NCBI GenBank assembly: GCA_902762855.1
Contig: CACWPR010000001.1
Coordinates: 7,656 to 71,655, forward strand
Length of the DNA stretch: 64,000 bases
Reading direction: 5' to 3'
Source: Ruminococcus flavefaciens
Lineage (GTDB): Bacteria; Bacillota; Clostridia; Oscillospirales; Ruminococcaceae
The position numbers and the translations under genes are program-made. The notes beneath the pieces are model-generated. The model was not told the DNA's origin. It saw nothing but the letters and a program-made list of their open reading frames with translations, and searched no databases. Shown here in pieces: positions 16,800 to 55,600 of the stretch. Numbering within the stretch: the first letter of the stretch is position 1; each line of letters opens with the position of its first letter.

Positions 16800-16982
16800 A
16801 TCGGCTCTCCTTTCGTTGTATCAAGATGCATCTGCCTTTATAGTGCAGATATTTGCGTTTGGTTAGGGCATTGTGAAAATTTTTCATATGATGAAAATAT
16901 AGCACAAGACAGAAAGAAAGTCAATAGAGTCAATGAAGAGATAATGAAAAATGCCCGGCATGGACAATGCCGGGCGCTTATC

Positions 16983-18272: not shown

Positions 18273-18570
18273 TTCCCTTCGTGATAATTATTATTCTGCA
18301 ATTGAACGATATTGCATTATTTCTGATTGTAATAATACCATAGAATGTTCCGGATTTCAAGCCAAATATTGTTGAATACGTCTGGCTTTTGGTCAAGGAT
18401 TGCTCACAACTGAGGAGAATATTGCTCCTGGGATTGTGCTCCGCAGGATGAAGTACAGAGGTCCGAAAAAAACGAGCGCCTCCGCTTACGGAGGCGCAGA
18501 AGTGCTAAAAACGCTTAAAAAGCAAGGGAGCCTGCGGTTACCAACGAAGTCGGACACACAGGCTCTGTGC

Positions 18571-35353: not shown

Positions 35354-35430
<77 letters not shown>

Positions 35431-37723: not shown

Positions 37724-38200
37724 ATGATATGGCTAAAATATGATCGTGATGATTTTGAATGGCTAAATGGCAAAGAACTTTCAGAAACGGACAGAGAATT
37801 TTATTCGAGGTCGCTGCATAATCAGTATAACCGACTGTGTTACTGGTTAGGTGCAATAATATCTCTTCCAATTATAATGCTGCTGATTAACGGGTTAGGT
37901 ATTTCATTCTTTGTGCTGATATTTGTTGGTATAGTATCTCTGATAGTGATGTGCTTGCAAAACAGAGCTTTGAAACAAAAGTATCGCATAAGAAAAGGTG
38001 AATTCATATGGAGAAACGGACGGGTTGATTTTGCAAGAAACGGCAATAAAAATCATAGTAAATATGTGATCGCTGACGGAGCTTATTGCCAGACCTTTGA
38101 ATCAATCAGCAAGTTTCATTCCAAAGATGAAATAATGATAATCAAGCTCGATAAATACGGAATAGCATTTGTAAAAAATAAGGTATCACCTGTTGAGTGA
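37724..38200 (+). CDS. Hypothetical two-TM membrane protein
   Basis: GGAGG RBS; two hydrophobic helices. Confidence 0.65.
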   Translation: MIWLKYDRDDFEWLNGKELSETDREFYSRSLHNQYNRLCYWLGAIISLPIIMLLINGLGISFFVLIFVGIVSLIVMCLQNRALKQKYRIRKGEFIWRNGRVDFARNGNKNHSKYVIADGAYCQTFESISKFHSKDEIMIIKLDKYGIAFVKNKVSPVE

Positions 38201-38214
38201 TACCCTGAGATTGA

Positions 38215-38472
38215 TTATTCCTTTTCTGAGCTTTCGGCAGCTGTTTCGGGATGCTCCATTTCGTATATCAGGTTGTAGACTGCCTCAGTAAATAATGCAT
38301 TAAGCGAAGTGTTATGTTCAGCAGCAAACTCCTGAAGCTTTGCTTTCTCTCCCTTCGGAACTCGCACCTTGATCTCGTCATAAGCCTTAGCATTATAACG
38401 CATAGTCGCTTCTTTCTGAGCTTGTGTGTACTTCCCTCTTATGTAACGAGGTTCTTTCTTTTCTTCTTCCAT
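38215..38472 (-). CDS. Ribbon-helix-helix (Arc/CopG-like) DNA-binding protein
   Basis: YDEIKVRVPKGEKAKLQEFAAEHNTSLNALFTEAV strand-helix-helix pattern. Confidence 0.7.
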   Translation of the reverse strand: MEEEKKEPRYIRGKYTQAQKEATMRYNAKAYDEIKVRVPKGEKAKLQEFAAEHNTSLNALFTEAVYNLIYEMEHPETAAESSEKE

Positions 38473-38508
38473 ATGATCCTCCTGTTTGGATAGCCAGTAA
38501 TAATATTA

Positions 38509-38625
38509 GTATAACACATATTGCATACTGTGTCCAGTATTCATATTGCACAAATTTTTAATGAAAAATTGTACTCGAATTTTTGAAAAAACCGTATTGA
38601 CATACTGTACACAGTATGATATAAT
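38509..38625. promoter_or_regulatory. Divergent promoter pair, each with an ATACTG-N4-CAGTAT operator
   Basis: + TTGACA-17-TATAAT (38597-38625); - TGGACA-17-TATACT; operators at 38525-38540 and 38602-38617. Confidence 0.75.
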
Positions 38626-38645
38626 GATTATGCAATAAAGAATAA

Positions 38646-38666
38646 AGTGTGTCACGGTGACACACT
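38646..38666. repeat. Palindrome copy 1 (centre G)
   Basis: 20 nt downstream of the -10 box, directly before RBS. Confidence 0.97.
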
Positions 38667-38682
38667 CAGGGAGGAAAAGATT

Positions 38683-38955
38683 ATGAACGCAGTACGCAGA
38701 AGAACAATAACCAAGCTCATCGGCAGACTGAACGGACTTCTTGGACAAATGGAAGATCTTCTCGGAGATATTGATATTGTCAGAGAGGAAGAAAACGAAG
38801 CACTCAATAATATGCCAGAGAGCTTAATGGAAACCGACAGATATGCTCAGATTGAGGCTGCTGCGGACAATCTTGAAGAAGCCTATGACACATTCAGCGA
38901 AATGAAAGACAGCCTTGAGGACGTTGTAAACAGCCTTGAAGCTGCACAGGAGTAA
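38683..38955 (+). CDS. Hypothetical acidic coiled-coil protein (90 aa)
   Basis: GGGAGG RBS, ATG 38683; lies between copies 1 and 2. Confidence 0.8.
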   Translation: MNAVRRRTITKLIGRLNGLLGQMEDLLGDIDIVREEENEALNNMPESLMETDRYAQIEAAADNLEEAYDTFSEMKDSLEDVVNSLEAAQE

Positions 38956-38956
38956 G

Positions 38957-38977
38957 AGTGTGTCACCGTGACACACT
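38957..38977. repeat. Palindrome copy 2 (centre C)
   Basis: 1 nt after TAA, before AGGAGG. Confidence 0.97.
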
Positions 38978-38993
38978 TTCAGGAGGTAAAGCA

Positions 38994-39254
38994 ATGGAAG
39001 GAAGATTTATTAAGCCTGTTATCGGAGAAATCTACGAGAATAACGGCGGTGGTACTTATAAGTGCATCGGCTATGAGCCTGATACCGGAGAGCCAATAAT
39101 GGAGAATATCAATACAAGTTGGACTCTTGTTGCACACGCTGTGAAGCAATATACGGACGGAAAGATCGACTGGGGACATTCAACCGGTGGTTATTTCAAG
39201 CAAGATCCGTATCAGAGAAAATATATAATCAGGAAAAAGAGTGTGTCACCGTGA
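38994..39254 (+). CDS. Hypothetical protein (86 aa) ending inside copy 3
   Basis: AGGAGG RBS; C-terminal SVSP* is encoded by the palindrome. Confidence 0.75.
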   Translation: MEGRFIKPVIGEIYENNGGGTYKCIGYEPDTGEPIMENINTSWTLVAHAVKQYTDGKIDWGHSTGGYFKQDPYQRKYIIRKKSVSP

Positions 39255-39260
39255 CACACT
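39240..39260. repeat. Palindrome copy 3 (centre C)
   Basis: Supplies TGA stop of the upstream gene; followed by GGGAGG. Confidence 0.97.
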
Positions 39261-39290
39261 CAGGGAGGAAAGAATAATGGAGGACGAATA

Positions 39291-39494
39291 ATGTCTGAGC
39301 TGAAAACAAAACTTAAGGAATACCGTGCAAAGCACGATATGAAGCAGAGCGAACTTGCAGAACGTGTCGGTGTCCACAGAGAAACTATAACCCGGCTTGA
39401 AAAAGGACAGTATGCCCCCTCGCTTAAACTTGCAATGGATATTGCCGGAGTTTTCGGGGTTGCTGTTGAAGAACTTTTCTCTTTTGAGGACTGA
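39291..39494 (+). CDS. Xre/Cro-family HTH protein (67 aa)
   Basis: [32 protein letters not shown]. Confidence 0.88.
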
Positions 39495-39526
39495 TACAAG
39501 TAAAATGTACAAATATCAAGAAAAAG

Positions 39527-39547
39527 AGTGTGTCATCGTGACACACT
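39527..39547. repeat. Palindrome copy 4 (variant ...TCAT-C-GTGA...)
   Basis: One substitution; followed by AAAGGA RBS. Confidence 0.93.
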
Positions 39548-39565
39548 CGGAAAGGAAAAGAAGAA

Positions 39566-39901
39566 ATGAATTTACTCAAATGCCCGGAATGTGGCGGTGA
39601 GCTGATAGTGAATATGAGATTTACTACGCAGTTCGGTAAAAAGCTCATCCTTACTGATAAAGGTTGGGAGGAAGTTACCGGAAATGTTATGGATGAGCCT
39701 CCAACAGAGCCGGTACGCAGCCTCGGAGCTGTAACTTGCAGCAAATGCGGTCTTGAATGGCGTAGACCTCTATATGAGATAGGCACAGACAATGAAGGTA
39801 CTACGATGTTCATTCAGCTATCCCGTGATGAGGTTAAAATGAATGCTGCGGACAGAGTAAGATACTTTGCAGACAAAGGAATCAAGGTCATTTACAGATA
39901 A
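39566..39901 (+). CDS. Zinc-ribbon hypothetical protein
   Basis: CPECG...CSKCG. Confidence 0.7.
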   Translation: MNLLKCPECGGELIVNMRFTTQFGKKLILTDKGWEEVTGNVMDEPPTEPVRSLGAVTCSKCGLEWRRPLYEIGTDNEGTTMFIQLSRDEVKMNAADRVRYFADKGIKVIYR

Positions 39902-39963
39902 GGAAATCGAACGCAAGTTCATATAAAATCAATAGCAATAAAGTGCGAAAAGGAGTAGTTATT

Positions 39964-40398
39964 ATGTTGAATTCAGTTACAATTATGGGCAGACTTACAG
40001 CTGATCCGGTATTACAGCAGACCACAAACGGTGTTCCGTACTGCAAGTTCATTCTTGCAAACGAGAGCGAATACTATCAGGAGGGCAAAGAAAGACCGGT
40101 CAACTTCGTGATTATGAACGCTTGGAGAAGCACAGCAGAGTTTATCTGCCGTAACTTCGTAAAGGGCAAGCTGATGATCGTTGAAGGTTCGCTCAGAGTT
40201 GCATCATACGTTAAGAATGACGAGAGAAGATTTATATCCAATGTTGAGGTCGGCAGAGCTTACTTTGCCGGGGACAAAAAGGCAGCTGCTCCTGACAATT
40301 CTGCTATCGAGGAAGAGCAGACCTTGAACAAGGCTATCGAGGAATTCAGCCTTGAAGAATATGAGGAAATCCTCTCAGGCGAGGATCTTCCGTTCTGA
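39964..40398 (+). CDS. ssb: Single-stranded DNA-binding protein
   Basis: MLNSVTIMGRLTADP OB fold; acidic tail EDLPF; AAGGAG RBS. Confidence 0.93.
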   Translation: MLNSVTIMGRLTADPVLQQTTNGVPYCKFILANESEYYQEGKERPVNFVIMNAWRSTAEFICRNFVKGKLMIVEGSLRVASYVKNDERRFISNVEVGRAYFAGDKKAAAPDNSAIEEEQTLNKAIEEFSLEEYEEILSGEDLPF

Positions 40399-40418
40399 GT
40401 GTGTCACCGTGACACACT
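40398..40418. repeat. Palindrome copy 5 (centre C)
   Basis: First base overlaps the ssb TGA. Confidence 0.97.
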
Positions 40419-40440
40419 TGATACCGAAAGGAGAACTACT

Positions 40441-40608
40441 ATGAATATGTGGTTAGAAGGAAACAGACGCTACTGTGACCGTCAGACAGCAATTGAGCTT
40501 GGCGGTGAAGAATATCGTAATACAGAGATACACACTATACTCTATTTCGATGAATATATCACAATCGTTGATGAAGTGTGTCACGGTGACACACCTGAGA
40601 ATGAATAA
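40441..40608 (+). CDS. Small hypothetical protein (55 aa) reading through copy 6
   Basis: AAGGAG RBS, ATG 40441. Confidence 0.5.
   Translation: MNMWLEGNRRYCDRQTAIELGGEEYRNTEIHTILYFDEYITIVDEVCHGDTPENE
40575..40595. repeat. Palindrome copy 6 (centre G, last base C)
   Basis: One substitution; about 30 nt upstream of the parA start. Confidence 0.93.
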
Positions 40609-40624
40609 GGGAGGAACAATAAAA

Positions 40625-41416
40625 ATGGCAATTAAAACAAAAATCATCTCAATATGCTCTGAAAAGGGCGGTGTAGGCAAGACAACAACCACAATAAACC
40701 TTGCCGGAGGACTTGCAAAGAGAGGTAAGGAAGTGCTTATCCTCGACCTCGATCAGCAGCAGAACGCTTCACACGCTCTTGGATACGTCAAGGACGGACG
40801 TCCGACTACAGCGGAGCTGATCTATAACACAGTGGCAGGAATCCCGATAGACTATGCAGAGGCTATCAGGACTTGCGGAAATGGTGTTGACTACATTCCT
40901 TCATCGCCTATGCTTACAAACATAACCGGCACGATAGCAAACGACACAGAGAACGACAGTAATTTTGTTCTCAGGAGACTCCTTTTTAATGAAGTCTTTG
41001 CCGAATACGACTACATACTTCTTGACTGCCGGACGATACTCGACCTCCTGATAAGCAATGCCCTTAACGCAAGCGACTACGTTATCATCCCGGTTGACCT
41101 CGGTATATACGCATACAACGGACTTGATAAAATGCTTGATAAGGTTGCCTCGATAAACAATACAACAAACCGCAGCCTGAGAGTATTGGGAGTACTGCTT
41201 AACAAGTTGCAGCTTACCAATGTCAAGACATCTCTTGCAGAATCTATCCGCAGCGAGTATAGTGAGCTTACATTCAAGGCAAGTATTCCATACTGCCCGG
41301 CTCAGACAGAGCTTGCAGTTCTGAATCAGACAAGCTCCGTATTTGATGAACGCAGTTCCCTCGGTACTGCATTTATGAACCTGACAGATGAGGTCATAAG
41401 CATTGTGGAGGAATAA
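40625..41416 (+). CDS. parA: ParA/Soj family ATPase
   Basis: Deviant Walker A KGGVGKTTT, LDLDQQ, YDYILLDC; GGGAGG RBS before ATG 40625. Confidence 0.92.
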   Translation: MAIKTKIISICSEKGGVGKTTTTINLAGGLAKRGKEVLILDLDQQQNASHALGYVKDGRPTTAELIYNTVAGIPIDYAEAIRTCGNGVDYIPSSPMLTNITGTIANDTENDSNFVLRRLLFNEVFAEYDYILLDCRTILDLLISNALNASDYVIIPVDLGIYAYNGLDKMLDKVASINNTTNRSLRVLGVLLNKLQLTNVKTSLAESIRSEYSELTFKASIPYCPAQTELAVLNQTSSVFDERSSLGTAFMNLTDEVISIVEE

Positions 41417-41437
41417 AATGTGTCACCGTGACACACT
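41417..41437. repeat. Palindrome copy 7 (variant AATGTG..., centre C)
   Basis: Directly after the parA TAA. Confidence 0.93.
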
Positions 41438-41455
41438 TAGAAAGGAAATGATGTA

Positions 41456-42109
41456 ATGTACAAGTTAAGTGAACAGCCAGTATCCAGAATATTCGATGAA
41501 ATGGTAAATTTCAGTCCACTATATCATAGAGTAGCTGTTTGTAAGGTGAAAGAACCTTTTTCTATATACGATATTAACTATGAGGAAGGCGATCTGGTAG
41601 CTTTAACTGGTGATACGGAATCTAAAATTGAAATTGAGTACTACCAGAATTTGAAGAAAAGACATTCATATAATATTCATTATGGAGTATCCGGAGATAG
41701 ATTGAGCATAACTGTTGATGATTTCAAAAAACGCTTTGAGCTATGTGAGGAAGAAACTATTAAAGTCGAAAATGTAATTAAACAAGCAAAGGACATTGAT
41801 TACGAAAAGTATTGCGAGATAGAAAACAAACGTGCTGAACCTCTTGATGATTATGGCTTTGCAACAATAGCAGTGATAGCGATAATAGCAGGACCTTTGA
41901 CATTTTGGTGGTTGTTATTTAAACCCGGTACAAAAGAATTCATCTTAACACTACTAATATTTCTTGCTATAATCTCAGTTTTCTTCTTGTTTAATTTTAT
42001 AAAAGATATGAAGCAGCGAGTAATAGAAAGAAAATACCTTGATAAATACAATGAAATGGACAAGCAAAGAGAACAGAGTGGAATGTATATTCCTGAAAGT
42101 GAGGAATAA
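41456..42109 (+). CDS. Hypothetical two-TM protein
   Basis: 217-aa ORF between copies 7 and 8. Confidence 0.7.
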   Translation: MYKLSEQPVSRIFDEMVNFSPLYHRVAVCKVKEPFSIYDINYEEGDLVALTGDTESKIEIEYYQNLKKRHSYNIHYGVSGDRLSITVDDFKKRFELCEEETIKVENVIKQAKDIDYEKYCEIENKRAEPLDDYGFATIAVIAIIAGPLTFWWLLFKPGTKEFILTLLIFLAIISVFFLFNFIKDMKQRVIERKYLDKYNEMDKQREQSGMYIPESEE

Positions 42110-42130
42110 AGTGTGTCACCGTGACACACT
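42110..42130. repeat. Palindrome copy 8 (centre C)
   Basis: Directly after TAA 42107-42109. Confidence 0.97.
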
Positions 42131-42134
42131 TGCA

Positions 42135-42205
42135 AAAGAAAACAGAGCAGACCGTCCAACACGCTAAAGGACACGTTCTGCTCTGCCACCAGACGAAAGT
42201 CTGAT
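42135..42205 (-). ncRNA. Candidate small antisense RNA
   Basis: - strand TTGACG-17-TATAAT (42212-42240), then CAGAGCAGA...TCTGCTCTG hairpin with U-tract ending just before copy 8. Confidence 0.5.
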
Positions 42206-42257
42206 ATAATCATTATATCTTACTCACAGGCTTTCGTCAAGTATCTGGAGGAAGAAA

Positions 42258-42698
42258 ATGGTATTTGTAAAAGTATTATATGCAGTTGCAATGATAATCT
42301 TCACTTACCGTCTACTGAATCGCAAGCGATGTACTGATCCCGAAGGAAATATAGAATTTATTTCAGTTTCTGAGGCAATTGAGGAAATGAACCGGACTAA
42401 GGAACAGCTTTCTTCAATTGAAGAAATGATAACCGACATAACGATTTGTTCCCCGGACGATCATAACAAGTACATCAGATGTGAGTGGGCAAACACTTTA
42501 GGTGAGTGTTTCAAGTATGATCTCTTCATTGACGGTAATGGAACAGTGTCAGATGAACTGCTCAGAATTGCTTATGCAGAGAGGTCAAGACTGCGTACCC
42601 TACTCCGTCAGCAGATCAGAAATCTTAATGACCGGTGTAACGAAAACTGTAACGAAAACTATGCGTTTTCATCGGGGGAGGGGTTAGATGATAAGTGA
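42258..42698 (+). CDS. Hypothetical protein
   Basis: GGAGG RBS; 146 aa. Confidence 0.65.
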   Translation: MVFVKVLYAVAMIIFTYRLLNRKRCTDPEGNIEFISVSEAIEEMNRTKEQLSSIEEMITDITICSPDDHNKYIRCEWANTLGECFKYDLFIDGNGTVSDELLRIAYAERSRLRTLLRQQIRNLNDRCNENCNENYAFSSGEGLDDK

Positions 42699-42996
42699 TA
42701 TTAAGTATTGTAAACGCTGCGGAGCAATGATCTCAGACATTAACAATACAGACTGGTACAGGCATATGAGCGTGAAATACTGTGAGATATGCCGCAAGGA
42801 ATCTGACCGGGAGAAAACAGCACTCCGGGTATATAATCTACGTCAGCGAAAGAAAGCAAAAGATAAACTCCGGGATGAGAAACTTGTCCTTATGGAGGAA
42901 AGGAATGAGCTGCTTGCAGAGGAGAACGTACTGCTCCGTCAGAGGTTAGTGCAGCTCCGGGAAAAGGTTCTTAGTAATGAGAGTGTGTCACGGTGA
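42688..42996 (+). CDS. CxxC/CxxC zinc-finger plus coiled-coil protein ending inside copy 9
   Basis: CKRC...CEIC; C-terminal SVSR* from the palindrome. Confidence 0.7.
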   Translation: MISDIKYCKRCGAMISDINNTDWYRHMSVKYCEICRKESDREKTALRVYNLRQRKKAKDKLRDEKLVLMEERNELLAEENVLLRQRLVQLREKVLSNESVSR

Positions 42997-43002
42997 CACA
43001 CT
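42982..43002. repeat. Palindrome copy 9 (centre G)
   Basis: Supplies TGA; followed by GGGAGG. Confidence 0.97.
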
Positions 43003-43018
43003 CAGGGAGGAAAGAATA

Positions 43019-43486
43019 ATGGATAATAATAAATGCGTACACGATGAATTAGCCAACGAAGGACTTGTGAACAAGCTCAGAAAGTTCAAGGAATATCTTC
43101 TTAACGATGATGTTCCAGAGTGGCAGCAGCTCATAGCAACTGCCGGATTTGTAATGGACGTTGTAAATGAGCTTAAATGGAAAGAACACACTGAATATCA
43201 CGGCACAAGCGAAAGGTGTGTTATGGAGGCTGATGATGTTTTCGATGAGATAATGGCAGCGGTCAACTATGAGCTTGAAAAGCCGTACTATAAAAAGCTC
43301 GATAGTATGTGGGATGATTGGAACAACAACAAAACAGGCAAATATGCAAAAATCAATACTATGCAGGAAATGCTTGATATTATCTGTGACTGCCTTGAAA
43401 TCGAATATCCCGGTCTTATAGAACTTGAAAAGAAATATTTCGGACTTAGTCTGAAAAGCGATGAAAACGAGGATGAATCACAATGA
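43019..43486 (+). CDS. Hypothetical protein (155 aa)
   Basis: GGGAGG RBS, ATG 43019. Confidence 0.7.
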   Translation: MDNNKCVHDELANEGLVNKLRKFKEYLLNDDVPEWQQLIATAGFVMDVVNELKWKEHTEYHGTSERCVMEADDVFDEIMAAVNYELEKPYYKKLDSMWDDWNNNKTGKYAKINTMQEMLDIICDCLEIEYPGLIELEKKYFGLSLKSDENEDESQ

Positions 43487-43743
43487 TATTCAAAGACTTA
43501 AAAGCGTGTCCGTTCTGCGGTTGTGAAGAATACTATGAAAGAAGTCGTATCAAAGGGTATGTTTTCTATCGTACTCGTTTTGATGGAGAAGAAACTGATA
43601 ATACCAATATGTACGATGCAACAACAACTATATCTAATGGGAAAGTTTATTGTTGCAACTGTGAACGTTACCTTGGCAACTTTATAACTGATACACTTGG
43701 CAAGAGTGCTGAGAAACAATTAATCAAGATGAAGGAGGAATGA
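43483..43743 (+). CDS. Zinc-ribbon hypothetical protein
   Basis: CPFCG...CCNC; ATGA overlap with the upstream gene. Confidence 0.65.
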   Translation: MIFKDLKACPFCGCEEYYERSRIKGYVFYRTRFDGEETDNTNMYDATTTISNGKVYCCNCERYLGNFITDTLGKSAEKQLIKMKEE

Positions 43744-43746
43744 CGT

Positions 43747-43986
43747 ATGACGAGATTTCCGGGACATTATAAAATAGACTGGATTTCAATAAAAGAACAG
43801 CAGCCTAAAGAAACAGGATACTATTTCTGTTGCCATAGTAACAAATTACCCAGTGGCAGCAGATACAGTATTGAGTTGTGGATAGCAAGCGGAAACGACT
43901 GGATACAGGGCACTCGCAATCGTGACAGTATTGAATACTGGGCATATCTTCCGGACTTGCCGGAGGGATTCAACGAAGAATGGTAA
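43747..43986 (+). CDS. DUF551-like phage-type small protein
   Basis: WISIKEQQP...YWAYLPDLP pattern. Confidence 0.6.
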   Translation: MTRFPGHYKIDWISIKEQQPKETGYYFCCHSNKLPSGSRYSIELWIASGNDWIQGTRNRDSIEYWAYLPDLPEGFNEEW

Positions 43987-43988
43987 TA

Positions 43989-44009
43989 AGTGTGTCACCG
44001 TGACACACT
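43989..44009. repeat. Palindrome copy 10 (centre C)
   Basis: Between TAATAA and the AGGAGG RBS of parB. Confidence 0.97.
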
Positions 44010-44021
44010 CAGGAGGAGAGT

Positions 44022-44960
44022 ATGGCAAAGATTGATTTTACAGCAATGAAAAACAGCCGTAAAGCTGCCGAAGATCAGATCGAGGATAATATCCCGGCAG
44101 AGCTTGAAGAAAGCTATACAAGCGTATGGGGCAGCAATAAAGAGAACATCATCTACATAGATACAACTCGTCTTATTCCTTTTGTAGACAAATACGGCAA
44201 TTCGCAGCCATTCAAGCTGAATGAAAAGAAAGTCAGCCAGATAGATGCAAGTGCAAAGGATATTGGCATAGTCACTCCGCTGACAGTCAGAGCTAAAGGA
44301 GATCTCTATGAGATAATCGCCGGACATCACAGACTTGCAGCTGCACAGCAGATAGGTCAGCTCAAAGTTCCTTGTATAGTCCGCAAGTACACAGACGAAG
44401 AAATGTACACAGTACTTGCTGAGAGTAACATCCAGAGGGACAGGACGCTGCCGAGCGAATACGGCAGAATCTTCGCCCGGTATATGGAAATCAGGGAGAG
44501 CGAGGACTTGACAGCTGAGGAAATAGCTGCGAAGTTCGATATATCAAAGAAAACGATGTACAGATATATCAATGTCAATTCTCTTATCTCTGAGCTTCAG
44601 GATATGACTGACAACAAGATCATAAATATCGGTGCCGTTGATACTATATCGCAGCTTTCTGAGGACGAGCAGACAGCTCTTGCAGCTGTTCTTGATGAAG
44701 AAAAGGTCATATTCTCAGTTGCAATGGCAAAGCAGCTCAGAACACTCTCAGATAACGCTGAGGGCGAACTAACAGAAGAAGATATAAGAACACTATTTGA
44801 GCATAAAAAAGCTGCACATAAGTCTGTGCAGCGATCAATAAGCGATTCTGTTGTGAATCGATACTTTATGCCCGATGCTTCTGACAAGGAAGTAGAGGAC
44901 ACCATAGCTAAAGCTCTTGAACTGTATTTCAATCAGTCTCACCGGAACGCAGACAATTGA
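44022..44960 (+). CDS. parB: ParB/Spo0J family protein
   Basis: PLTVR, YEIIAGHHRLAAA (GxxR box), ESNIQR, HTH TAEEIAAKFDISKKTMYRYI. Confidence 0.9.
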   Translation: MAKIDFTAMKNSRKAAEDQIEDNIPAELEESYTSVWGSNKENIIYIDTTRLIPFVDKYGNSQPFKLNEKKVSQIDASAKDIGIVTPLTVRAKGDLYEIIAGHHRLAAAQQIGQLKVPCIVRKYTDEEMYTVLAESNIQRDRTLPSEYGRIFARYMEIRESEDLTAEEIAAKFDISKKTMYRYINVNSLISELQDMTDNKIINIGAVDTISQLSEDEQTALAAVLDEEKVIFSVAMAKQLRTLSDNAEGELTEEDIRTLFEHKKAAHKSVQRSISDSVVNRYFMPDASDKEVEDTIAKALELYFNQSHRNADN

Positions 44961-45234
44961 TAAGCTCAATAACTGCTGCGACCTGCCTGTCACTCAGACC
45001 TTTGATTGATACCGTTGATGTTTCCTCGATACCAAGAAGGTAATCAGTTGAGACATTGAATTGCTTAGCCAAAGTTACGATATACTGCACTTGCGGAACG
45101 GATAGTCCCATTTCCCAGGCGTTCACACCTGAGCGTGAGATACCTAACCCTCTTGCAAGTGCAGCCTGTGTCAGACCGGATTTTTCACGCAGCATCCTGA
45201 TTTTGTCACCTAATGAGAATAATTCTTTTTCCAT
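44929..45234 (-). CDS. Xre-family HTH repressor
   Basis: LTQAALARGLGISRSGVNAWEMG...FNVSTDYLLG; GAGGTG RBS before ATG 45234. Confidence 0.88.
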   Translation of the reverse strand: MEKELFSLGDKIRMLREKSGLTQAALARGLGISRSGVNAWEMGLSVPQVQYIVTLAKQFNVSTDYLLGIEETSTVSIKGLSDRQVAAVIELINCLRSGETD

Positions 45235-45384
45235 AAACCATTCACCTCTACATATTATAATATAGTATGGCACTATGATTTTGCATTATCATAATGATAA
45301 TATTACTTGACATATTATTATAATTATTATATAATAATGAGGTCAAATATAAACATCTCGGTATAAGAAAGGTTGGATGTAATT

Positions 45385-46443
45385 ATGAATATCAGACACT
45401 TATCAGCACTTATAACAGCCATTGCCTTATCCGCCTCCTTTACGAGCTGCGGTGATAAGGATGATAGAAGCAGCTCAAAATCAAATGTTGTCGAGGCTAA
45501 GAATATCGAACCAAGCACGGTTGAAACAAGCAAAGACATTGAATCCACAACAGTAGACGATGTGATCCAGAAAGCTCTTGAGGAACAGGCAAACCGGGAA
45601 CACGACGGATATTACCTTATTGACTATGTTACTGTGAATTTCAAAGGATATGAACACGATTCAGAAGTTGAGGCAGTTGTCGATTGGGAGAGGCTTGCAA
45701 CCGATCTTGGCAATGATATAACTCCTGATTTTCTGGAACAGGTTTATCATATAAGTGTCCTGAATACAAAAGAAAATTCACTCGATCACGCCAAAGTTGA
45801 TGATCTTATCAATGGCGAGGAAGTTAATATTCATCTAAGCGAAAGGTCATTGCAGTCCTCATTCAAACAAAAGTACAGCAAAGAGCTTCAATTCTTAGAC
45901 GAGAACATCTGGGGTGATAATGACAATTATGCTGTTGTATCCGGACTTAAAACAAAAGTATTCCTTGAAAATGCAGCTGACGTTGACCCAAAGGCTGTAA
46001 ATGAGCTCTTTGAAGAAACAATGAGTACTATCAAGGAGTCTACTCAAAACTATACTGATACATTGCTTAATAATGGAAGTTCAGTAGATATAGATTTTGT
46101 TCTCGGCAGGAACAGCAAAATAACTGATGAAACCAGAAAGTGTAAAATCAATGATTATAAGGTCGAAAAAACATATTTGGCTACCAGAACAGCAGCAAGC
46201 TATAATGATGTAGCTGCAAGCGGTCTGCCGGGTAATATGATATTTAATATATACAAGCTGACAGCAGAACGCTATGGCAGCGGTGAGATATTTGAAATGT
46301 ACTATCGCACCGAGGTCGGAAATGTTTTATTTGAGGACGATAAAATGCTCATTGGCGATGAAGAAGTTAAAGTACAGTTTGCCGGATCAGCTGATGAACT
46401 TATGCCTGATAACAAGTACTGGGAAATTTCAGAAGTAAAGTAA
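45385..46443 (+). CDS. Lipoprotein of unknown function
   Basis: Lipobox-like FTSC; own TTGACA-17-TATAAT promoter at 45307-45335. Confidence 0.75.
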   Translation: MNIRHLSALITAIALSASFTSCGDKDDRSSSKSNVVEAKNIEPSTVETSKDIESTTVDDVIQKALEEQANREHDGYYLIDYVTVNFKGYEHDSEVEAVVDWERLATDLGNDITPDFLEQVYHISVLNTKENSLDHAKVDDLINGEEVNIHLSERSLQSSFKQKYSKELQFLDENIWGDNDNYAVVSGLKTKVFLENAADVDPKAVNELFEETMSTIKESTQNYTDTLLNNGSSVDIDFVLGRNSKITDETRKCKINDYKVEKTYLATRTAASYNDVAASGLPGNMIFNIYKLTAERYGSGEIFEMYYRTEVGNVLFEDDKMLIGDEEVKVQFAGSADELMPDNKYWEISEVK

Positions 46444-46463
46444 GTGTGTCACCGTGACACACT
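46443..46463. repeat. Palindrome copy 11 (centre C)
   Basis: Overlaps TAA; followed by AGGAGG. Confidence 0.97.
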
Positions 46464-46479
46464 CAGGAGGGAGTATATT

Positions 46480-46833
46480 ATGGCAGTTGTATTATTACCA
46501 TTCAAATTAATAGCGACAGTATTACTGTATATACTGAAAATCGTATTCAAGACGATTTCATTTATCGTGTTTGGCTGTTCTCTGCCATTTGTACTGCTTT
46601 CTGATATAATAGGTACAATTCTCGGACTGATCTCAGCCGTTGGTCTTGCAGGAATGTTTATATGTTGGCGGTTTGGAGATCTTGACGGAAAAACAGTCCT
46701 AATATGTGCCTTTACTTTTGGCATACTGAGTGCATTGTTTTTGGCAGCAGAAGATATAGCTGCTGCAATTGAAGAAAAGCTATCAGATGCCTCTGATTTC
46801 TTTGGCTATCTGATAGCTGATATGTGGACATAA
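46480..46833 (+). CDS. Small multi-TM membrane protein
   Basis: AGGAGG RBS, ATG 46480; hydrophobic. Confidence 0.7.
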   Translation: MAVVLLPFKLIATVLLYILKIVFKTISFIVFGCSLPFVLLSDIIGTILGLISAVGLAGMFICWRFGDLDGKTVLICAFTFGILSALFLAAEDIAAAIEEKLSDASDFFGYLIADMWT

Positions 46834-46894
46834 GAAAAAGCAGACCGTTATGGTCTGCTTTTCCCTTTGAAGTAGGTGGATTATGGCAACACTG

Positions 46895-47650
46895 TTAGTG
46901 TGTTATATCATCTTTGCTCTTATCATTATGCTGTTGCATAGGTTTTTCCGCAGCTTTTTCAGCAAAGGCTTTTTGTGTGGCTCTGGAGAAACTAAACTTG
47001 TAATTATTTATGAGTAAATTACTTTGTTGTTTTAATTCAGCAGAAAGTTTGGAAAAAACCGATTGTGGAATATCAGATAAGCTCTTTCCTTTTTCGATAT
47101 ATAAAACATCAGTATATATCGGTATGTCATTAGCTCTTGCCAGAATATGGGTTATAGAATAAACATTTGCACTCCTATCAAAGCAATCCTCATCTCTTAA
47201 GGATTCGACAGTAAAATATGCATCTGATTTTATGCCAGTTGGATTTTGTTTATTAAAGCAAAGAGTGAAATTCAAATCAGTTGAGCCGAATTTGTATGTT
47301 TGAGTTGATGTTGTTATGTCTTCAAGTAAGAAAGATTCTGAGGTGGCAAGATTAGAAATATTATTTATATGTTGGATTTTTCTTTTTGATAATTGAAACG
47401 GATGCTGAGCTGAAAAGAAAATCTGAGTTCCTTGCAGCTTACCATCAACGGCGAGTTTGTAGAAGCTCTTGGCAGACAGGTTACTTTCTACACCTGTTAA
47501 ATGTTTGAAGTTGGAGGTTTTGAACATTACCTCTATGTATCTGCCATCAAAGACATAGAGGAAGGTTTTTCCAACAAGTTTTTTCTTATATTGCTTGGCT
47601 GCAATGCAGATTTGTTTTGCAGCTTGCTTTCTGTCATTTAATTTACTCAT
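46895..47650 (-). CDS. PBECR4-like (BECR-fold) predicted ribonuclease
   Basis: YKKKLVGKTFLYV...IEVMFKTSNFKHLTG...FYKLA pattern recalled for PBECR4; charged C-terminal tail. Confidence 0.7.
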   Translation of the reverse strand: MSKLNDRKQAAKQICIAAKQYKKKLVGKTFLYVFDGRYIEVMFKTSNFKHLTGVESNLSAKSFYKLAVDGKLQGTQIFFSAQHPFQLSKRKIQHINNISNLATSESFLLEDITTSTQTYKFGSTDLNFTLCFNKQNPTGIKSDAYFTVESLRDEDCFDRSANVYSITHILARANDIPIYTDVLYIEKGKSLSDIPQSVFSKLSAELKQQSNLLINNYKFSFSRATQKAFAEKAAEKPMQQHNDKSKDDITH

Positions 47651-47994: not shown

Positions 47995-48015
47995 AGTGTG
48001 TCACCGTGACACACT
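47995..48015. repeat. Palindrome copy 12 (centre C on +)
   Basis: Overlaps the TAA of the - strand gene at 48015-48017. Confidence 0.97.
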
Positions 48016-48455
48016 TAATAATAATTTTTCGTAGCTTGTCTAATCATAAGGAAGGTATCCTTATTTTCAGGCTTAATATTCAGTCCGTCAAAGCTCTCAT
48101 TATGTGAATAGTAGTAATTACTTAAAGCCTCAGTCAAAGCCATTTCATCGGTGTTTTCAAAGTCACTAAGCATATCATTTATAGTCTGCTCAAATGTTGT
48201 ACAACATACGTTATCAGAGATAAAATAATCAATATCATCATAAGAATCAACAATGTTATAATTGATGTTATTATATGAGCCCTTTTGTATAGAGTAAACA
48301 TCTATTATTGCTTCATCAAAGAAACCAGAAAACATTTCAAGGTATTCCAAAGCAGAAACACCACAAAGAATTACATCATTTGTCATAACATTTTGCAGCC
48401 ATAGACGAGTTGAGATAAAATCCTTACGAGTTTTCGTCATCATATTATACTTCAT
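48015..48455 (-). CDS. Hypothetical protein, AbiEi-antitoxin-like (tentative)
   Basis: ILCGVSALEYL...TTFEQTINDML pattern; family call from recollection only. Confidence 0.5.
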   Translation of the reverse strand: MKYNMMTKTRKDFISTRLWLQNVMTNDVILCGVSALEYLEMFSGFFDEAIIDVYSIQKGSYNNINYNIVDSYDDIDYFISDNVCCTTFEQTINDMLSDFENTDEMALTEALSNYYYSHNESFDGLNIKPENKDTFLMIRQATKNYY

Positions 48456-50501: not shown

Positions 50502-50522
50502 AGTGTGTCACGGTGACACACT
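50502..50522. repeat. Palindrome copy 13 (centre G on +)
   Basis: 10 nt after the HEPN stop; 6 nt upstream of a - strand -35 box (50490-50495). Confidence 0.97.
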
Positions 50523-51310: not shown

Positions 51311-51331
51311 AGTGTGTCACGGTGACACACT
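51311..51331. repeat. Palindrome copy 14 (centre G on +)
   Basis: Supplies the TGA stop of the resolvase gene; last copy seen. Confidence 0.97.
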
Positions 51332-51940
51332 TTTCTCATACTGCTTAACAAGGTTATAAAACGTAGTCTTTTTCAGTCCTAAAAGCTCCATAGCCTGAAC
51401 TGCTGTTATTGAGCCTGACTTCCATTCATTATAGGTATTCTGCCAGTTTTCAGGAAAATCCGCTTTAGGTCTGCCAAGATACTTACCCGAAGCCTTTGCT
51501 GCTTCAATGCCTTGTCGCTGCCTGTTTTTGATGTTCTCACGCTCTTTTTCGGCAGTATAGCTCAAAATCTGGAGAACGAGGTCAACAATAAAGTGCTTGT
51601 CAAGACTATCGCTGCTCTTGCTTGTATCGAGCAAAGGCATATCGAGAACTTTAATATCAGCTTCAAGATTATATGTTATATGCTGCCATTGATCCCTTAT
51701 TTCCTTATAATTTCTGCCGAGCCTGTCCAGAGAAGTGATTATAAGCATATCTCCTGAGTGCAGCATAGGAGCAGTCTCAGCTGTCCCTACAAGGGTATTA
51801 TAGCCTTTACGATTAAAGTCCTTTCCACTTGCCTTATCAGTGATTATGTACCTATCATCCGAAATATACTCACGCAGCATTCGCAGCTGCCGGTCAAGAT
51901 TCTGGTCGGAACTCGATACTCTTGCATATCCGTATTTCAT
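51317..51940 (-). CDS. Serine recombinase, resolvase/invertase family with C-terminal HTH
   Basis: YGYARVSSSDQNLDRQ, SLDRLGRN, RQRQGIEAAKASGKYLGRP, LGLKKTTFY. Confidence 0.94.
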   Translation of the reverse strand: MKYGYARVSSSDQNLDRQLRMLREYISDDRYIITDKASGKDFNRKGYNTLVGTAETAPMLHSGDMLIITSLDRLGRNYKEIRDQWQHITYNLEADIKVLDMPLLDTSKSSDSLDKHFIVDLVLQILSYTAEKERENIKNRQRQGIEAAKASGKYLGRPKADFPENWQNTYNEWKSGSITAVQAMELLGLKKTTFYNLVKQYEKSVSP

Positions 51941-52616: not shown

Positions 52617-55600
52617 TTATAACTCTTCTTTCTCCTGAGAGCTATCTGGGATGCTGCTCTTAGCCTTTTCAGCATAATCACGCTGTATACTGCGAGAAAA
52701 CAATGGCTTTTCCTGAACATTCTCCGCTGTTTGTTTGTCACTTTCTTTAGCATCTTTATCAGTAACTTTCTCCGGAGGTTGTAATTCGATCTCGATCTGA
52801 GCCAACCGTTCCATTTTATCGTGCAGTTCCGCTGCTTGTGGGAACGGCTTGTTCATTTCGATCTCGCCCTCAGCGATCAAAGTCTTTAGTTCCGCTTCTC
52901 TTGCGATGAGGTTATCCAAGCTTTGCGGAAGTCCTGATATAGCATTCTCTATTCTTGTAATATTACCGCCCGGAGAAGTACCAAGATTGATACGATAAGG
53001 CTGATTCTCACGTTTCAGCTCTGCTACATACTGCTGCTGCCACGAATTGAAGGATATACTTACCTTGAAGCCCTTGTATTCAGCCAAAGTCTCCATTTTC
53101 TCAGCATTAGGAGTACATTTGTCTCTCATTGCATAAAGTAAAGCTTCACCGGCTTTCTCACGCTCAGAATAGGTCACACCGCCGATCTTTATATCCAGTA
53201 TCTTCTTTCCGTCCTCATTGAGCCTATCCGGAACGCCTTCAAGGTATTTGATGTCCTCCTTTATATACCCGATACGCTTAGTTGTAGCTTCAAGCTCAAC
53301 AGGATACTTCTTCAGAACATTGTCTTGCAGCTGATAATGCTGATTGTCATAGCTCGACTTTATCATTTTTAGCTCTGCGATCTCATTTTCAAGTGTCATT
53401 TTCTCCTTGATAAGCGGATTTCCGGCACATAGAGCCTTTACCTCTGAGTAAGAAAGTGCATTTGCATCCACATCGGCACAGTTTCTTGCCGGAGACTTTG
53501 AAGTCATAATCTGACCGATAAACTTCTGCTTGTTCTCCAAAGTCTGGAACAAATATGAATCGAAAGTTTTCTCAGTAACATAGCGGAAAAGATGAACTTC
53601 CTTGTTCTCATTGCCTTGTCTTACCATTCTTCCACGTCGCTGCTCCATATCTGCCGGACGCCAAGGTGCATCCAGATCGTGAGAAGCTACAAGCTTTGTC
53701 TGTACGTTTGTACCGCATCCCATTTTCGCAGTCGATCCTATAAGAACCCTTATGTCACCACGGCGAACTTTTGCGAACATTTCAGCTTTCGCAGTTTCGT
53801 TCTTTGCTTCGTGAATAAATGCTATTTCTTCTCTCGGAACTCCCTTTGCAACGAGCTTTTCACGAATATCGTCATAGATCGAGATTTTTCCGACTTCCTC
53901 GATAGCATCATCATTGACCTTTTCTTCGTCCTCCGCATCTTTCTTTACAGGATCACCTTTGATATTAGGAACACCCATATCGCAGAATATAAGCTGTGTC
54001 GAACGATCTTCCTTTGTTTCATTCCAGATATTGAATACATTCTCGACACAAAGATTGACTTTTGTTCCCGGTTCATCAGGCAGAAGGGGATTTATAAGTC
54101 TCTGATCCAGTCCGCATTTGCGTCCGTCATTGGTAACACAGAGCATATTGTCCACGCTGCTGTCAACGCTGCCACTCTGAATCTTGTCTGCACGTTCAGC
54201 AAGTGAAGCTACTATATCAGTCTGAATTTTGGTAGGCTTTGCAACAATTGTCTGTGTTTCACACTCCGGTACATCGAGGTTGAGCTGATCGGAAGTCTTA
54301 ATATCTGCAACTTCCTTGAATAACGACATAAGCTCCGGTATATTATTGAACTTCGCAAAACGTGTTTTCATTCGGTAATCGTTACCGGCAGGACGTACCT
54401 CATAAGCTGATACAGTTTCACCGAAGTTTGCTGCCCAACAATCGAAGTGCTTCAAGCCAAGCTCTTCAAGGCGGTCACTCTGGAGATACTTTTGCATAGT
54501 ATATATCTCCGTCATTGAGTTTGCAACAGGTGTGCCGGTTGCAAAAGTAGTACCACGATTACCGGTTATCTCATCGAGGTAACGGCATTTAGCGTATAGA
54601 TCCGGAGTTTTCTTAGTGTTCTGATTCGTAGAAATGCCCGAAACATTGGTCATTTTCGTAGTCAGGAACAAATTTTTGAACTCGTGAGCCTCGTCAACGA
54701 ACATCTTGTCAATGCCGAGCTGCTCAAACGTAACGACATCGTCCTGATTTTCATTTTGAAGCTTTTCAAGCTTAGTTTCAAGGTTCTTTACAGCCTTTTC
54801 CATTTGCTTAACGGTAAACTTAGCTCCGTCCTGATCTTGCATTTCCTCAATACCGTTTCGGAGATCGTCTATCTGTTCCTGAATAGTTTTCTGCTGCCTT
54901 TCTATGGATACCGGTATCTTTGTTATCTGAGAATGACCGATAATAACAGCATCAAAATTGCCGGTAGCTATCTTAGCACACAGCTTCTGGCGATTTTCCT
55001 TAGTAAAATCGTTCTTTGTTGCGACCAGAATATTCGCATTAGGATAGAGCCTTAAAAAGTCCTGTCCCATCTGCTCTGTCAGGTGATTCGGAACTACCAT
55101 AAGCGACTTATGATGAAGTCCAAGACGTTTTCCTTCCATAGCAGTCGCTATCATTTCAAAGGTCTTGCCAGCACCTACTTCGTGAGCAAACAGCGTATTA
55201 CCGCCGTATAGAGCGTGTGCAATAGCATTCTTCTGATGATCTTTAAGAGTGATTTCCGGATTCATACCTGGGAAGGAAAGGTGCGAACCGTCATATTCAC
55301 GAGGTTTTGTGCTGTTGAAAAGAACATTATATCGCTCAACTAAGAACTCTCTGCGTTCCGGATCTTTAAATACCCATTCCTTGAAAGCTTCTTTTATAGC
55401 TCTCTGCTTCTGCCTTGCAGCAGCAGTTGCCTTATCATCGAGGACGTTCTTCTCTTTTCCCTCATCAGTCTCTATTTTCTTTGTGACCTTTGTATCTCTG
55501 AGGTTAAGTGCATCCTCAAGGAGCTGATAACCATTACGCTTTTCTGTTCCATATGTAGTAGTTACTGTAACATTATACTTATCAGCCGACTTGTTTGTAA

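Follow-up and report, generated by a model that had tools for sequence, protein, structure and literature searches.

The window described here is a stretch of 64,000 nucleotides of Ruminococcus flavefaciens DNA (GenBank assembly GCA_902762855.1, contig CACWPR010000001.1, positions 7,656 to 71,655 of the forward strand), and coordinates refer to this window unless a contig is named. From a tRNA-Met gene to the end of the contig the GC content is 0.35-0.41, against 0.50 in the host. The DNA encodes MobC/NikA, a MobA/VirD2-type relaxase, a single-stranded DNA-binding protein (SSB), ParA, a Lar-like protein, ParB, a PBECR4 nuclease and a type IV secretion system (T4SS). The low GC content, the tRNA-Met border and the mobilization and T4SS gene set therefore identify an integrative conjugative element (ICE) of Ruminococcus, and the tRNA-Met gene is probably its integration site. 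A palindrome, TGTGTCAC-S-GTGACACA (S is C or G), is repeated at the gene junctions of this ICE, and we consider it probably a parS-like cognate site of the element's own ParB. The left border and the two partition genes are located as follows.

35354..35430, plus strand: tRNA-Met, left element border, where GC drops from 0.50 to 0.40; just upstream of mobC (35964).
40625..41416, plus strand: parA, 263 residues, ParA/MinD-type ATPase; Pfam AAA_31 4.7e-42, CbiA 1.8e-23.
44022..44960, plus strand: parB, 312 residues; Pfam ParB_N 2.1e-12 (above cut-off), a helix-turn-helix (HTH) and a helical C-terminal part.

A search of the window with the pattern TGTGTCACSGTGACACA, allowing up to two mismatches, finds 14 copies of the palindrome, 13 of them perfect and one with a single mismatch. 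By chance 0.01 copies are expected, and none of 100 shuffles gave 14. The 17-mer is followed by CT in 13 of 14 copies and preceded by AG in 13 of 14, which makes a 21-bp palindrome; both flanks are present together in 11 of 14. Copy 6 has CC after it and copy 7 has AA before it. The central base is only C or G and is independent of the gene strand. In window coordinates the array runs from 38646 to past 64000, and the segment 40575-44960 is its parA-parB part only. The copies, none of which is assigned a strand, are the following.

38648..38664: copy 1 (centre G); a consensus promoter has its -10 20 nt upstream, and the ATG at 38683 follows after 18 nt.
38959..38975: copy 2 (centre C), with the stop of 38683-38955 on one side and the Shine-Dalgarno sequence (SD) of 38994-39254 on the other.
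39242..39258: copy 3 (centre C), whose internal TGA is the stop of open reading frame (ORF) 38994-39254.
39529..39545: copy 4, the sole variant in the window (TGTGTCATCGTGACACA, C8->T), preceding the zinc-ribbon gene 39566-39901.
40400..40416: copy 5, flanked by ssb (39964-40398) and a small ORF, 40441-40608.
40577..40593: copy 6, upstream of parA and within the 3' end of a conserved 55-aa ORF.
41419..41435: copy 7, immediately 3' of the parA stop.
42112..42128: copy 8, 3' of the stop of 41456-42109; a block of homology with locus L095 begins 10 nt later.
42984..43000: copy 9, whose internal TGA is the stop of ORF 42688-42996; a shared ribosome-binding site (RBS) block is next.
43991..44007: copy 10, 14 nt upstream of the parB ATG and followed by CTCAGGAGGAGAGT-ATG.
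46445..46461: copy 11, flanked by 45385-46443 and 46480-46833.
47997..48013: copy 12, just past the stop of 48015-48455 (minus strand) and about 50 nt upstream of a minus-strand -35.
50504..50520: copy 13, with an A-run 5' and a T-run 3', so that either strand resembles a terminator; a minus-strand -35 is 6 nt away.
51313..51329: copy 14, which overlaps the resolvase ORF 51317-51940 (minus strand) at its stop end and resembles a terminator on the plus strand.

The placement of the copies follows a regular layout. Of the 13 junctions in the leading operon (38.6-46.9 kb) at which the genes do not overlap, 11 hold a copy between stop codon and SD. A typical junction consists of the stop codon, (A)AG-palindrome-CT, C/T-AGGAGG and then the ATG, 14-31 nt past the palindrome. 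The copies occupy stop-to-SD spacers of 35-40 bp, which are the only non-coding DNA of the element. In two ORFs the stop codon is supplied by the TGA inside the palindrome, and one conserved 55-aa ORF reads through a copy. Among 179 unique copies with flanks, collected across related elements, the palindrome immediately precedes the SD, whichever way the gene points. Promoter-like hexamers are found near four of the 14 window copies (6-50 nt away, or with the copy just past the -10), and the other ten stand at stop/SD junctions within operons. The four promoters are listed here.

38597..38625, plus strand: sigma-70-type promoter of the leading operon, TTGACA-17-TG-TATAAT, placing copy 1 at about +13 to +33 of the transcript.
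47944-47916, minus strand: TTGACT-17-TATAAT, about 50 nt from copy 12 (consensus scan).
50495-50467, minus strand: TTGCAA-17-TATACT, 6 nt from copy 13 (consensus scan).
51294-51266, minus strand: TTGCAA-17-TATAAT, 16 nt from copy 14 (consensus scan).

The arrangement of the first promoter with copy 1 is conserved in loci L095 and L054. A preliminary description of this DNA had reported a repeated palindrome, parA bracketed by copies 6 and 7, copy 10 directly before the parB RBS, and promoters near copies 1, 12, 13 and 14. The palindrome is real, the positions described, with the placement around parA and parB, were all reproduced, and a consensus scan returned the same promoter positions.

In the whole assembly (2.7 Mb, 143 contigs) there are 18 copies, every one on contig C1 at 46303-81001, which is the ICE. 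Each of the four copies beyond the window precedes the RBS of a minus-strand T4SS gene. The whole genome holds no ICE motif outside the ICE and no centre-deleted 16-bp form. The exact 17-mer is found in 5 of 401 genomes sampled from the host's family, and the motif is specific to the element and not a host signal. Multi-copy 17-mers occur in many Ruminococcus, Hominimerdicola and Oscillospiraceae assemblies; relatives within the genus bear the names Ruminococcus sp. and R. flavefaciens. The closest relative, genome G414 (JAFXEJ010000022.1), carries a syntenic element with 24 copies. Megablast of window 38200-47000 against PLSDB plasmids gave no match, and a full-text search for the motif string matched no paper in the library searched.

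Across the relatives there are 178 perfect unique copies and 57 variants. Core positions 2-7 are nearly invariant, and the rare changes there are one-sided and uncompensated (178 unique copies), a pattern of selection on the sequence and not on the pairing. The variable positions are 8-10 and 1/17, that is, the loop and the stem base of a hairpin. The half-site agrees with that of parS at seven of eight bases, the single change that the preliminary description had pointed out. The 17-bp site is nevertheless not a canonical parS, because one base pair is added at its centre and position 4 of the half-site is G. Canonical sites are present elsewhere in the same genome: contig C13 (13158-18568), outside the window, holds the host's own noc-like gene (15907-16731, G-K-A-Q helix), parA (16880-17704) and parB (17711-18568, G-R-S-R helix), and five perfect canonical parS, TGTTTCACGTGAAACA, within 3.6 kb. 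Since the host noc-parA-parB has its own parS and the motif is confined to the ICE, two distinct site/protein pairs appear to share one cell, as is needed by the earlier idea that the ICE site is orthogonal to host parS.

Residues 62-236 of the ICE ParB align with Noc/Spo0J/ParB through the N-domain and the HTH (phmmer, E 2e-14). The top Foldseek matches are ParB-CTPgS/CDP (complexes with cytidine nucleotides) and Noc at 1e-10, with KorB at 8e-7; Pfam HTH_ParB scores 0.0015, under the cut-off. The recognition helix is S175-K176-K177-T178-M-Y180-R181-Y182, and in a MAFFT alignment with host Noc and host ParB, S175-K176 falls on S172-R/Q173. Box II reads A-G-H-H-R-L-A-A (G101-H-H-R104..A107), in which the glycine, the equivalent of B. 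subtilis R80 and the alanine are kept and the other two arginines are lost. Box III is S-N-I-Q-R-D (N136-I-Q-R139). Residues G101, H102, R104, A107 and N136-R139 are invariant across the ICE ParB family. The AlphaFold2 (AF2) model is of moderate confidence (pLDDT 69) and has long helices with pLDDT 50-80 at 233-311, where a C-terminal dimerization domain would be expected; it is adequate for family placement, not for DNA contacts. The C-terminal part has no match in the PDB and is unrelated in sequence to the C-terminus of chromosomal ParB/Noc. Judged by sequence and modelled fold, the 312-residue protein truly belongs to the ParB/Noc type and has an HTH.

ParBs of relatives have 200-400 extra C-terminal residues, reaching 513-712 aa in G401, G441, G549, G550, G559 and G561. 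Such extended proteins are reminiscent of HerB/YfjB (652 aa), the ParB-like proteins of the F leading region. In all related elements a parA homologue lies beside parB, directly adjacent in FD-1, G548, G558, L264 and L268, and here the two genes are kept apart by six inserted genes.

ParB homologues are present in 15 loci selected by the motif, and among 24 motif-bearing genomes a ParB-like gene is found in every genome with at least seven copies. In low-copy relatives the copies are within about 1.5 kb of parA-parB. FD-1 has two copies in 4.6 Mb, both at most about 1.3 kb downstream of a ParB_N gene; copies lie on either side of parB in G548 C10 and G562 C291; and variant copies bracket parA-parB in G558. 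Sampling independent of the motif covered 151 relatives and 80 metagenome loci chosen by ParB peptides only. In the 151 relatives, all three non-self ParBs of at least 43% identity (G414 80%, G401 45%, G441 43%) have 2-3 copies within 1.5 kb; as a positive control, canonical parS was recovered at the chromosomal parB loci. In the metagenome set, 45 loci have a basic residue at 176, and roughly 40 of these carry a GTGTCA-type palindrome; none does among about 28 loci of a clade with the helix S-N-T-T. A distant ParB clade ('HPFKV / S-x-x-Q-V-x-R-Y-I-R-L', at most 35% identity) has no repeated palindrome within 10 kb on either side in the relatives, and it contributes nothing to the covariation given below. 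The earlier expectation that close ParB homologues would come with the motif thus fails for the original motif alone, but holds for the family of palindromes with related half-sites.

The recognition helix and the site vary together along this ParB family, as given below for the 80 metagenome loci together with loci of further helix variants (W is A or T).

Helix S-[KR]-K-T-x-Y-R-Y: site TGTGTCAC-S-GTGACACA, at ParB identities from 98% down to 29%.
Helices S-R-K-T-I-Y-R-Y (about 50% identity) and S-P-K-S-I-Y-R-Y (39%): the same half-sites with a 2-nt centre, a spacing variant.
Helices S-Q-K-T-V-Y-R-Y and, separately, S-S-K-T-L-Y-R-Y: site [A/T]TTGTCAC-N-GTGACAA[T/A], outer bases changed.
Helices with K-K-S-L, or L-S-K-K-T: site TGTGTCAA-W-TTGACACA or GTGTCA-WWW-TGACAC, centre changed.
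Helix K-R-S-M-F (P0084): sites with a symmetric T5->G change.
Helix S-N-T-T (S-N-T-T-V-Y-R-Y): one conserved ACCCTACCAC-AC-GTGGTAGGGT per locus, 3-5 kb downstream of parB.

The 2-nt-centre form is TGTGTCACGCGTGACACA and the AT-type form is ATTGTCAC-C-GTGACAAT. S175, K177, T178, Y180, R181 and Y182 are invariant down to 29% ParB identity, and so is the site core GTGTCA. The ParB tree shows two independent switches of the outer half-site bases, TG giving way to (A/T)T each time (clade support 97/99 and 100/99). Both switches coincide with loss of the basic residue 176, which is Q176 in L202-204 and S176 in P0108. The (A/T)T-type elements L202-L204, L266 and L267 have Q or S at the R173-equivalent, with sites directly 5' of the SD. 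Residue 176 aligns with R of host ParB (G-R-S-R) and Q of host Noc (G-K-A-Q), the Caulobacter R173/Q173. By experiment, R173/Q173 reads the second half-site base, G in parS and A in the Noc-binding site (Jalal et al., PMC7383237). This covariation is the strongest argument for ParB docking on the palindrome in the parS register. What makes it suggestive is its position, at the residue and the base already known to set specificity, and not its numbers.

Two side groups may be described here. The 2-nt-centre sister family (TGTGTCAC-GC/AC-GTGACACA) comprises L200, L201, L205 and L220, with no more than five copies per 11 kb, and 2-nt-centre sites occur in two distant ParB lineages. The single ACCCTACCAC-AC-GTGGTAGGGT site is found in L223, L225, L231, L236, L240, L241, L247 and L248, and is possibly the single parS of the S-N-T-T clade itself.

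The anatomy of the array, its distribution, its co-occurrence with ParB and the covariation are observed directly. Beyond these, we infer that the ICE ParB would bind the palindrome, that its action would depend on cytidine triphosphate (CTP), and that it would serve partition or repression. Each monomer would read one TGTGTCAC half-site by its HTH, in the same register as chromosomal ParB on TGTTTCAC, with the half-sites set apart by one extra base pair in the ICE family. ParB together with ParA may then hold or partition the excised circular form, or coat and dampen the element, or both. Transcribed copies would double as RNA hairpins 5' of a free SD on the sense strand, and where a T-run follows, the hairpins may act as terminators, mostly against antisense transcription or at operon ends. 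The 21-bp identities would be places where related elements exchange gene modules.

Several observations weigh against binding by ParB as the role of the palindrome. The residue-base rule is loose, with A176 (P0103) and P176 (L220) retaining G at position 2, and basic 176 against G2 gives about 0.1 in a Fisher test over 14 lineages, so that the association alone is not significant. The independent switches are few, the ParB phylogeny is confounded with that of the elements, and co-occurrence with ParB is likewise confounded with co-occurrence of the whole ICE family. Box II has GHHR and not GERR. The half-sites stand 1 nt apart here and 2 nt apart in L200/L201/L205/L220, against 0 in canonical parS; the spacing differs between close ParB relatives with an identical helix, and a hairpin would accommodate this more readily than a rigid dimer. 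The placement directly 5' of the SD is highly regular. In 22 of 67 copies, where about 5 would be expected, at least two further pairs lengthen the palindrome beyond 21 nt; the extension sequences differ from copy to copy, and a protein binding double-stranded DNA has no need of them. AT-type (type C) sites have arms of 10-11 bp and differ in the outer bases.

Copies are also present on two contigs where no ParB gene was found in the stretches examined. In the metagenome-assembled genomes (MAGs) G560 and G564, contig G560:C109 has five perfect copies over 36 kb of a T4SS/giant-protein element, with no ParB_N match anywhere on its 131 kb and, in the 54 kb examined, nothing that fits the ICE-clade ParB profile, and G564:C7 has three copies with no ParB in the 16 kb examined. 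On both contigs (G560:C109 45765-81976, L154-L156; G564:C7 34441-41376, L122 and L070) the copies are at gene junctions. In the G560 element the motif is encoded, as C-V-T-V-T-H, by the 3' end of a replication-organiser-like ORF, and the element also carries T4SS genes, a giant protein and a sigma/anti-sigma pair.

A rival explanation is a primary role in single-stranded nucleic acid, as an intercistronic RNA hairpin or a hairpin in transferred single-stranded DNA, the link to ParB being incidental. Such a hairpin might guard the 3' end of the upstream message, guard the 5' end and act as an SD-exposing insulator for the downstream one, and stop antisense and read-through transcription. We regard this explanation, including that function, as unlikely, yet it is the best of the rivals. 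The copies are perfect palindromes and are transcribed, and they are therefore also RNA hairpins. The 21-mer folds into a stem of 9-10 bp with a triloop at -11 kcal/mol and leaves the SD unpaired, and a frequent GAG/CUC extension brings it to -15.4 kcal/mol. At the 11 occupied junctions of the leading operon the palindrome lies 1-16 nt ahead of the SD. A T-run follows the hairpin on the plus strand of copies 13 and 14 and on the antisense strand of copies 1, 3, 4 and 11, and these copies are therefore read as intrinsic terminators. On the sense strand of the leading operon the hairpin has no U-run after it, but CUCAGGAGG instead. Stem-extending flanks with differing complementary bases, well above chance, fit a hairpin, as does the confinement of variability to its loop (8-10) and stem base (1/17). 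The change of the loop from 3 to 4 nt in the type B sites is free of cost for a hairpin, and the persistence of copies on the two contigs without a ParB gene in the examined stretches also speaks for it.

A structural hairpin does not, however, require one sequence, yet stem positions 2-7 are identical in the 178 unique copies, and the few changes in the stem lack a compensating partner. The centre is limited to C or G in the ICE family although it lies in the loop. The proximity to parA-parB in low-copy elements, and the coincidence of half-site changes with changes of the ParB specificity residue, are left unexplained. A stem kept identical at 2-7 while the proteins stand at 29-57% identity, with one-sided changes, is not how a purely structural element would behave. 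An orientation test of G-U against A-C on one-sided transitions gave six for and four against, and does not discriminate an RNA hairpin from a site in double-stranded DNA. We treat the hairpin/terminator and module-boundary roles as real but secondary uses of what is predicted to be a protein-binding palindrome.

A broader form of the ParB interpretation, in which these uses are joined, can be put forward tentatively. The copies, one at nearly every cistron boundary of the leading region and the T4SS operons, would form a dense array of ParB loading sites. On DNA, the ParB clamp might coat and silence the whole ICE and partition the excised form, a long-range control like that of KorB and BisD but in a Gram-positive gut anaerobe. 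In RNA, the hairpins might insulate cistrons and halt antisense transcription, and modules might be exchanged between elements sharing a ParB specificity. In these details the scheme is rather doubtful, somewhat less so than a purely single-stranded role.

The homology with relatives breaks at copies, and the copies are therefore also module boundaries. Compared with L054, the 570-bp segment 38976-39528, which holds a small ORF (38994-39254, g2_86) and the Xre gene (39291-39494), is an indel that has copies 2 and 4 as its exact bounds; copy 2 is the point where homology with the relatives breaks. Homology blocks 42139-43010 and 38755-38975, blocks with L095 among them, terminate at copies. It could be argued that the copies serve site-specific crossover in an array of integron-like cassettes, carried out by the small serine recombinase 51317-51940 or another one, and that the sequence stays conserved because this recombinase recognizes it. 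The exact indel and the breaks agree with this, as do the single gene in many inter-copy intervals and the resolvase ORF adjoining copy 14. Breakpoints at 21-bp identities would, however, arise through homologous or microhomology recombination whatever the purpose of the sites. The resolvase was seen in only two of about 120 motif-bearing loci, a fragment with 92% identity and another locus with 31%, and the expected integrase is the large serine recombinase that relatives have at the border of the element. A tyrosine integron integrase is absent, as are attC-like imperfect sites of 57-141 bp; of the properties of integron cassettes, only indels bounded by sites are seen. We consider this explanation very improbable. 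The small resolvase as a general cassette recombinase was rejected, being unconserved among the motif-bearing loci.

Two further genes are candidates for encoding another DNA-binding regulator of the element.

38215-38472, minus strand: ribbon-helix-helix (RHH)-like protein, 85 aa, divergent beside the first promoter.
39291-39494: Xre-type HTH protein (Xre67), 67 aa.

The least probable explanation, that the palindrome is the operator of such an Xre-type, RHH-like or sigma-r4-like protein, has in its favour that a perfect 17-bp palindrome is typical of the operator of a dimeric HTH repressor, that copy 1 overlaps the transcript start of a consensus promoter and that the RHH-like gene beside it has homologues in six motif-bearing loci, but it explains neither the parS-like half-site nor the covariation with the ParB helix, and the RHH-like protein is undetected in the motif-carrying G551, FD-1, G548 and G558. 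Xre67 as the binder was rejected, with two weak homologues (41%, 25%) in about 120 loci and none in G414 (24 copies). Recognition by ParB stands better than any of these rivals.

Compared with known systems, the closest likeness is to chromosomal ParB/Noc, which give the best sequence and structure matches and have the same fold and domain order (ParB_N with GxxR, then HTH). The palindromic site near parAB and the ParA partner are likewise shared with ParB-parS, and the R173/Q173-equivalent that separates ParB from Noc co-varies with the same half-site base in the ICE family. The sites differ in that parS is an abutting 16-mer (TGTTNCAC-GTGNAACA), while the ICE site has 17 bp with one central base pair (two in the sister family), and in that the fourth half-site base is T in parS and G here. 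ParB-parS systems have few sites near the origin, whereas the ICE has 18-24 copies over 35 kb at cistron junctions.

The operator of KorB in the IncP plasmid RK2 occurs in 12 dispersed copies. KorB, a CTP-dependent sliding clamp with a dual role in partition and silencing and with a ParA-type partner, IncC, has in common with the ICE an odd-centred palindrome and a ParB-family protein on a conjugative element. It differs in its weaker structural match to the ICE ParB (8e-7 against 1e-10), and in that its sites are at or upstream of promoters and not between stop codon and SD; the host of the ICE is a Gram-positive anaerobe. An oligonucleotide with the KorB operator, OB, contains TTTAGC-G-GCTAAA (PMC11790492). 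The preliminary description had proposed a KorB-like network of partition and regulation. Of this, the link between palindrome and ParB is upheld, and global regulation is not, with only 4 of 14 copies near promoter-like hexamers. Global repression in the manner of KorB is kept as hypothetical because most copies are away from promoters, box II with its GHHR leaves the use of CTP doubtful, and no KorA-like partner is known: among the Pfam annotations of the element there is no KorA/TrbA-like clamp-locking partner, with no search aimed at one.

BisD of ICEclc in Pseudomonas is a ParB-like CTP clamp with a GxxR motif that spreads over the ICE to control genes, and its loading site bisS, GAGCTATCCCC-n-GGGGATAGCTC, has a single unpaired centre base (PMC12409273). 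The likeness lies in an ICE-encoded ParB-like protein and an odd-centred palindrome. However, bisS is present in two copies, inside genes, and is unrelated in sequence to the palindrome here, and BisD acts as an activator through an activation domain and its partner BisC, neither of which is seen here. Outside the ParB family, stoperators of cluster A mycobacteriophages are asymmetric 13-mers that point in the direction of transcription and are recognized by a single protein of the element itself, the phage repressor, and T4-type PeSL are repeated promoter/stem-loop units mediating module shuffling. Both resemble the ICE array in having dozens of one short site at gene junctions of a mobile genome, but neither involves a ParB-family protein, and PeSL include a promoter.

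Odd-centred palindromes of ParB relatives on mobile elements, and ParB-like proteins of leading regions, are already known. New here are the site sequence, its copy number and placement (18-24 per element, at cistron boundaries), the Gram-positive host, and the natural variants of specificity and spacing. Besides their role in segregation, CTP clamps of the ParB family are increasingly recognized as regulators of mobile elements (KorB, BisD, HerB/YfjB). To our knowledge, every case studied is proteobacterial, with 2-12 sites. If the palindrome is indeed read by ParB, a widespread ICE family of Ruminococcus and Oscillospiraceae would carry 10-24 ParB sites in its gene punctuation, woven into the leading region (ssb, the Lar-like anti-restriction gene, polyvalent proteins) and the T4SS genes, and would offer a Gram-positive model of how ParB may control conjugative elements among gut and rumen microbes. 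It would also be a natural experiment on ParB specificity, with two switches of the R173-equivalent and spacing variants. The variant series (spacing 0, 1 and 2 bp; TG/AT with K/R against Q/S) would test how far the ParB clamp tolerates changes of site geometry and of specificity, and protein-binding site, RNA hairpin and boundary of recombination modules would be one sequence.

Some further features of the element and its relatives were noted. On the tRNA-Met side of mobC there is no large serine recombinase here, unlike in L265, L266 and L268. Scaffolds labelled Alistipes (Bacteroidota) carry this Firmicutes-type ICE with ParA, ParB, relaxase and many motif copies (L016, L020, L044, L086 and L098 on JAMPAJ010000002.1; L013, L029 and L099 on CAYNYB01); this is either mis-binning or chimeric scaffolding, or transfer across phyla. 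After parB a gap of 424 nt (44960-45385) is free of palindromes; a perfect promoter, TTGACA-17-TATAAT, at 45307-45335 faces a gene of 352 aa, with a near-consensus divergent promoter at 45346-45317 (minus strand). A polyvalent protein of 3761 aa is encoded at 52617-63902 (minus strand) and includes YodL, DUF6908, Eco57I-like methylase and SNF2 helicase domains, to which the proteins of relatives add Toprim/DarA_C/LPD25 modules.

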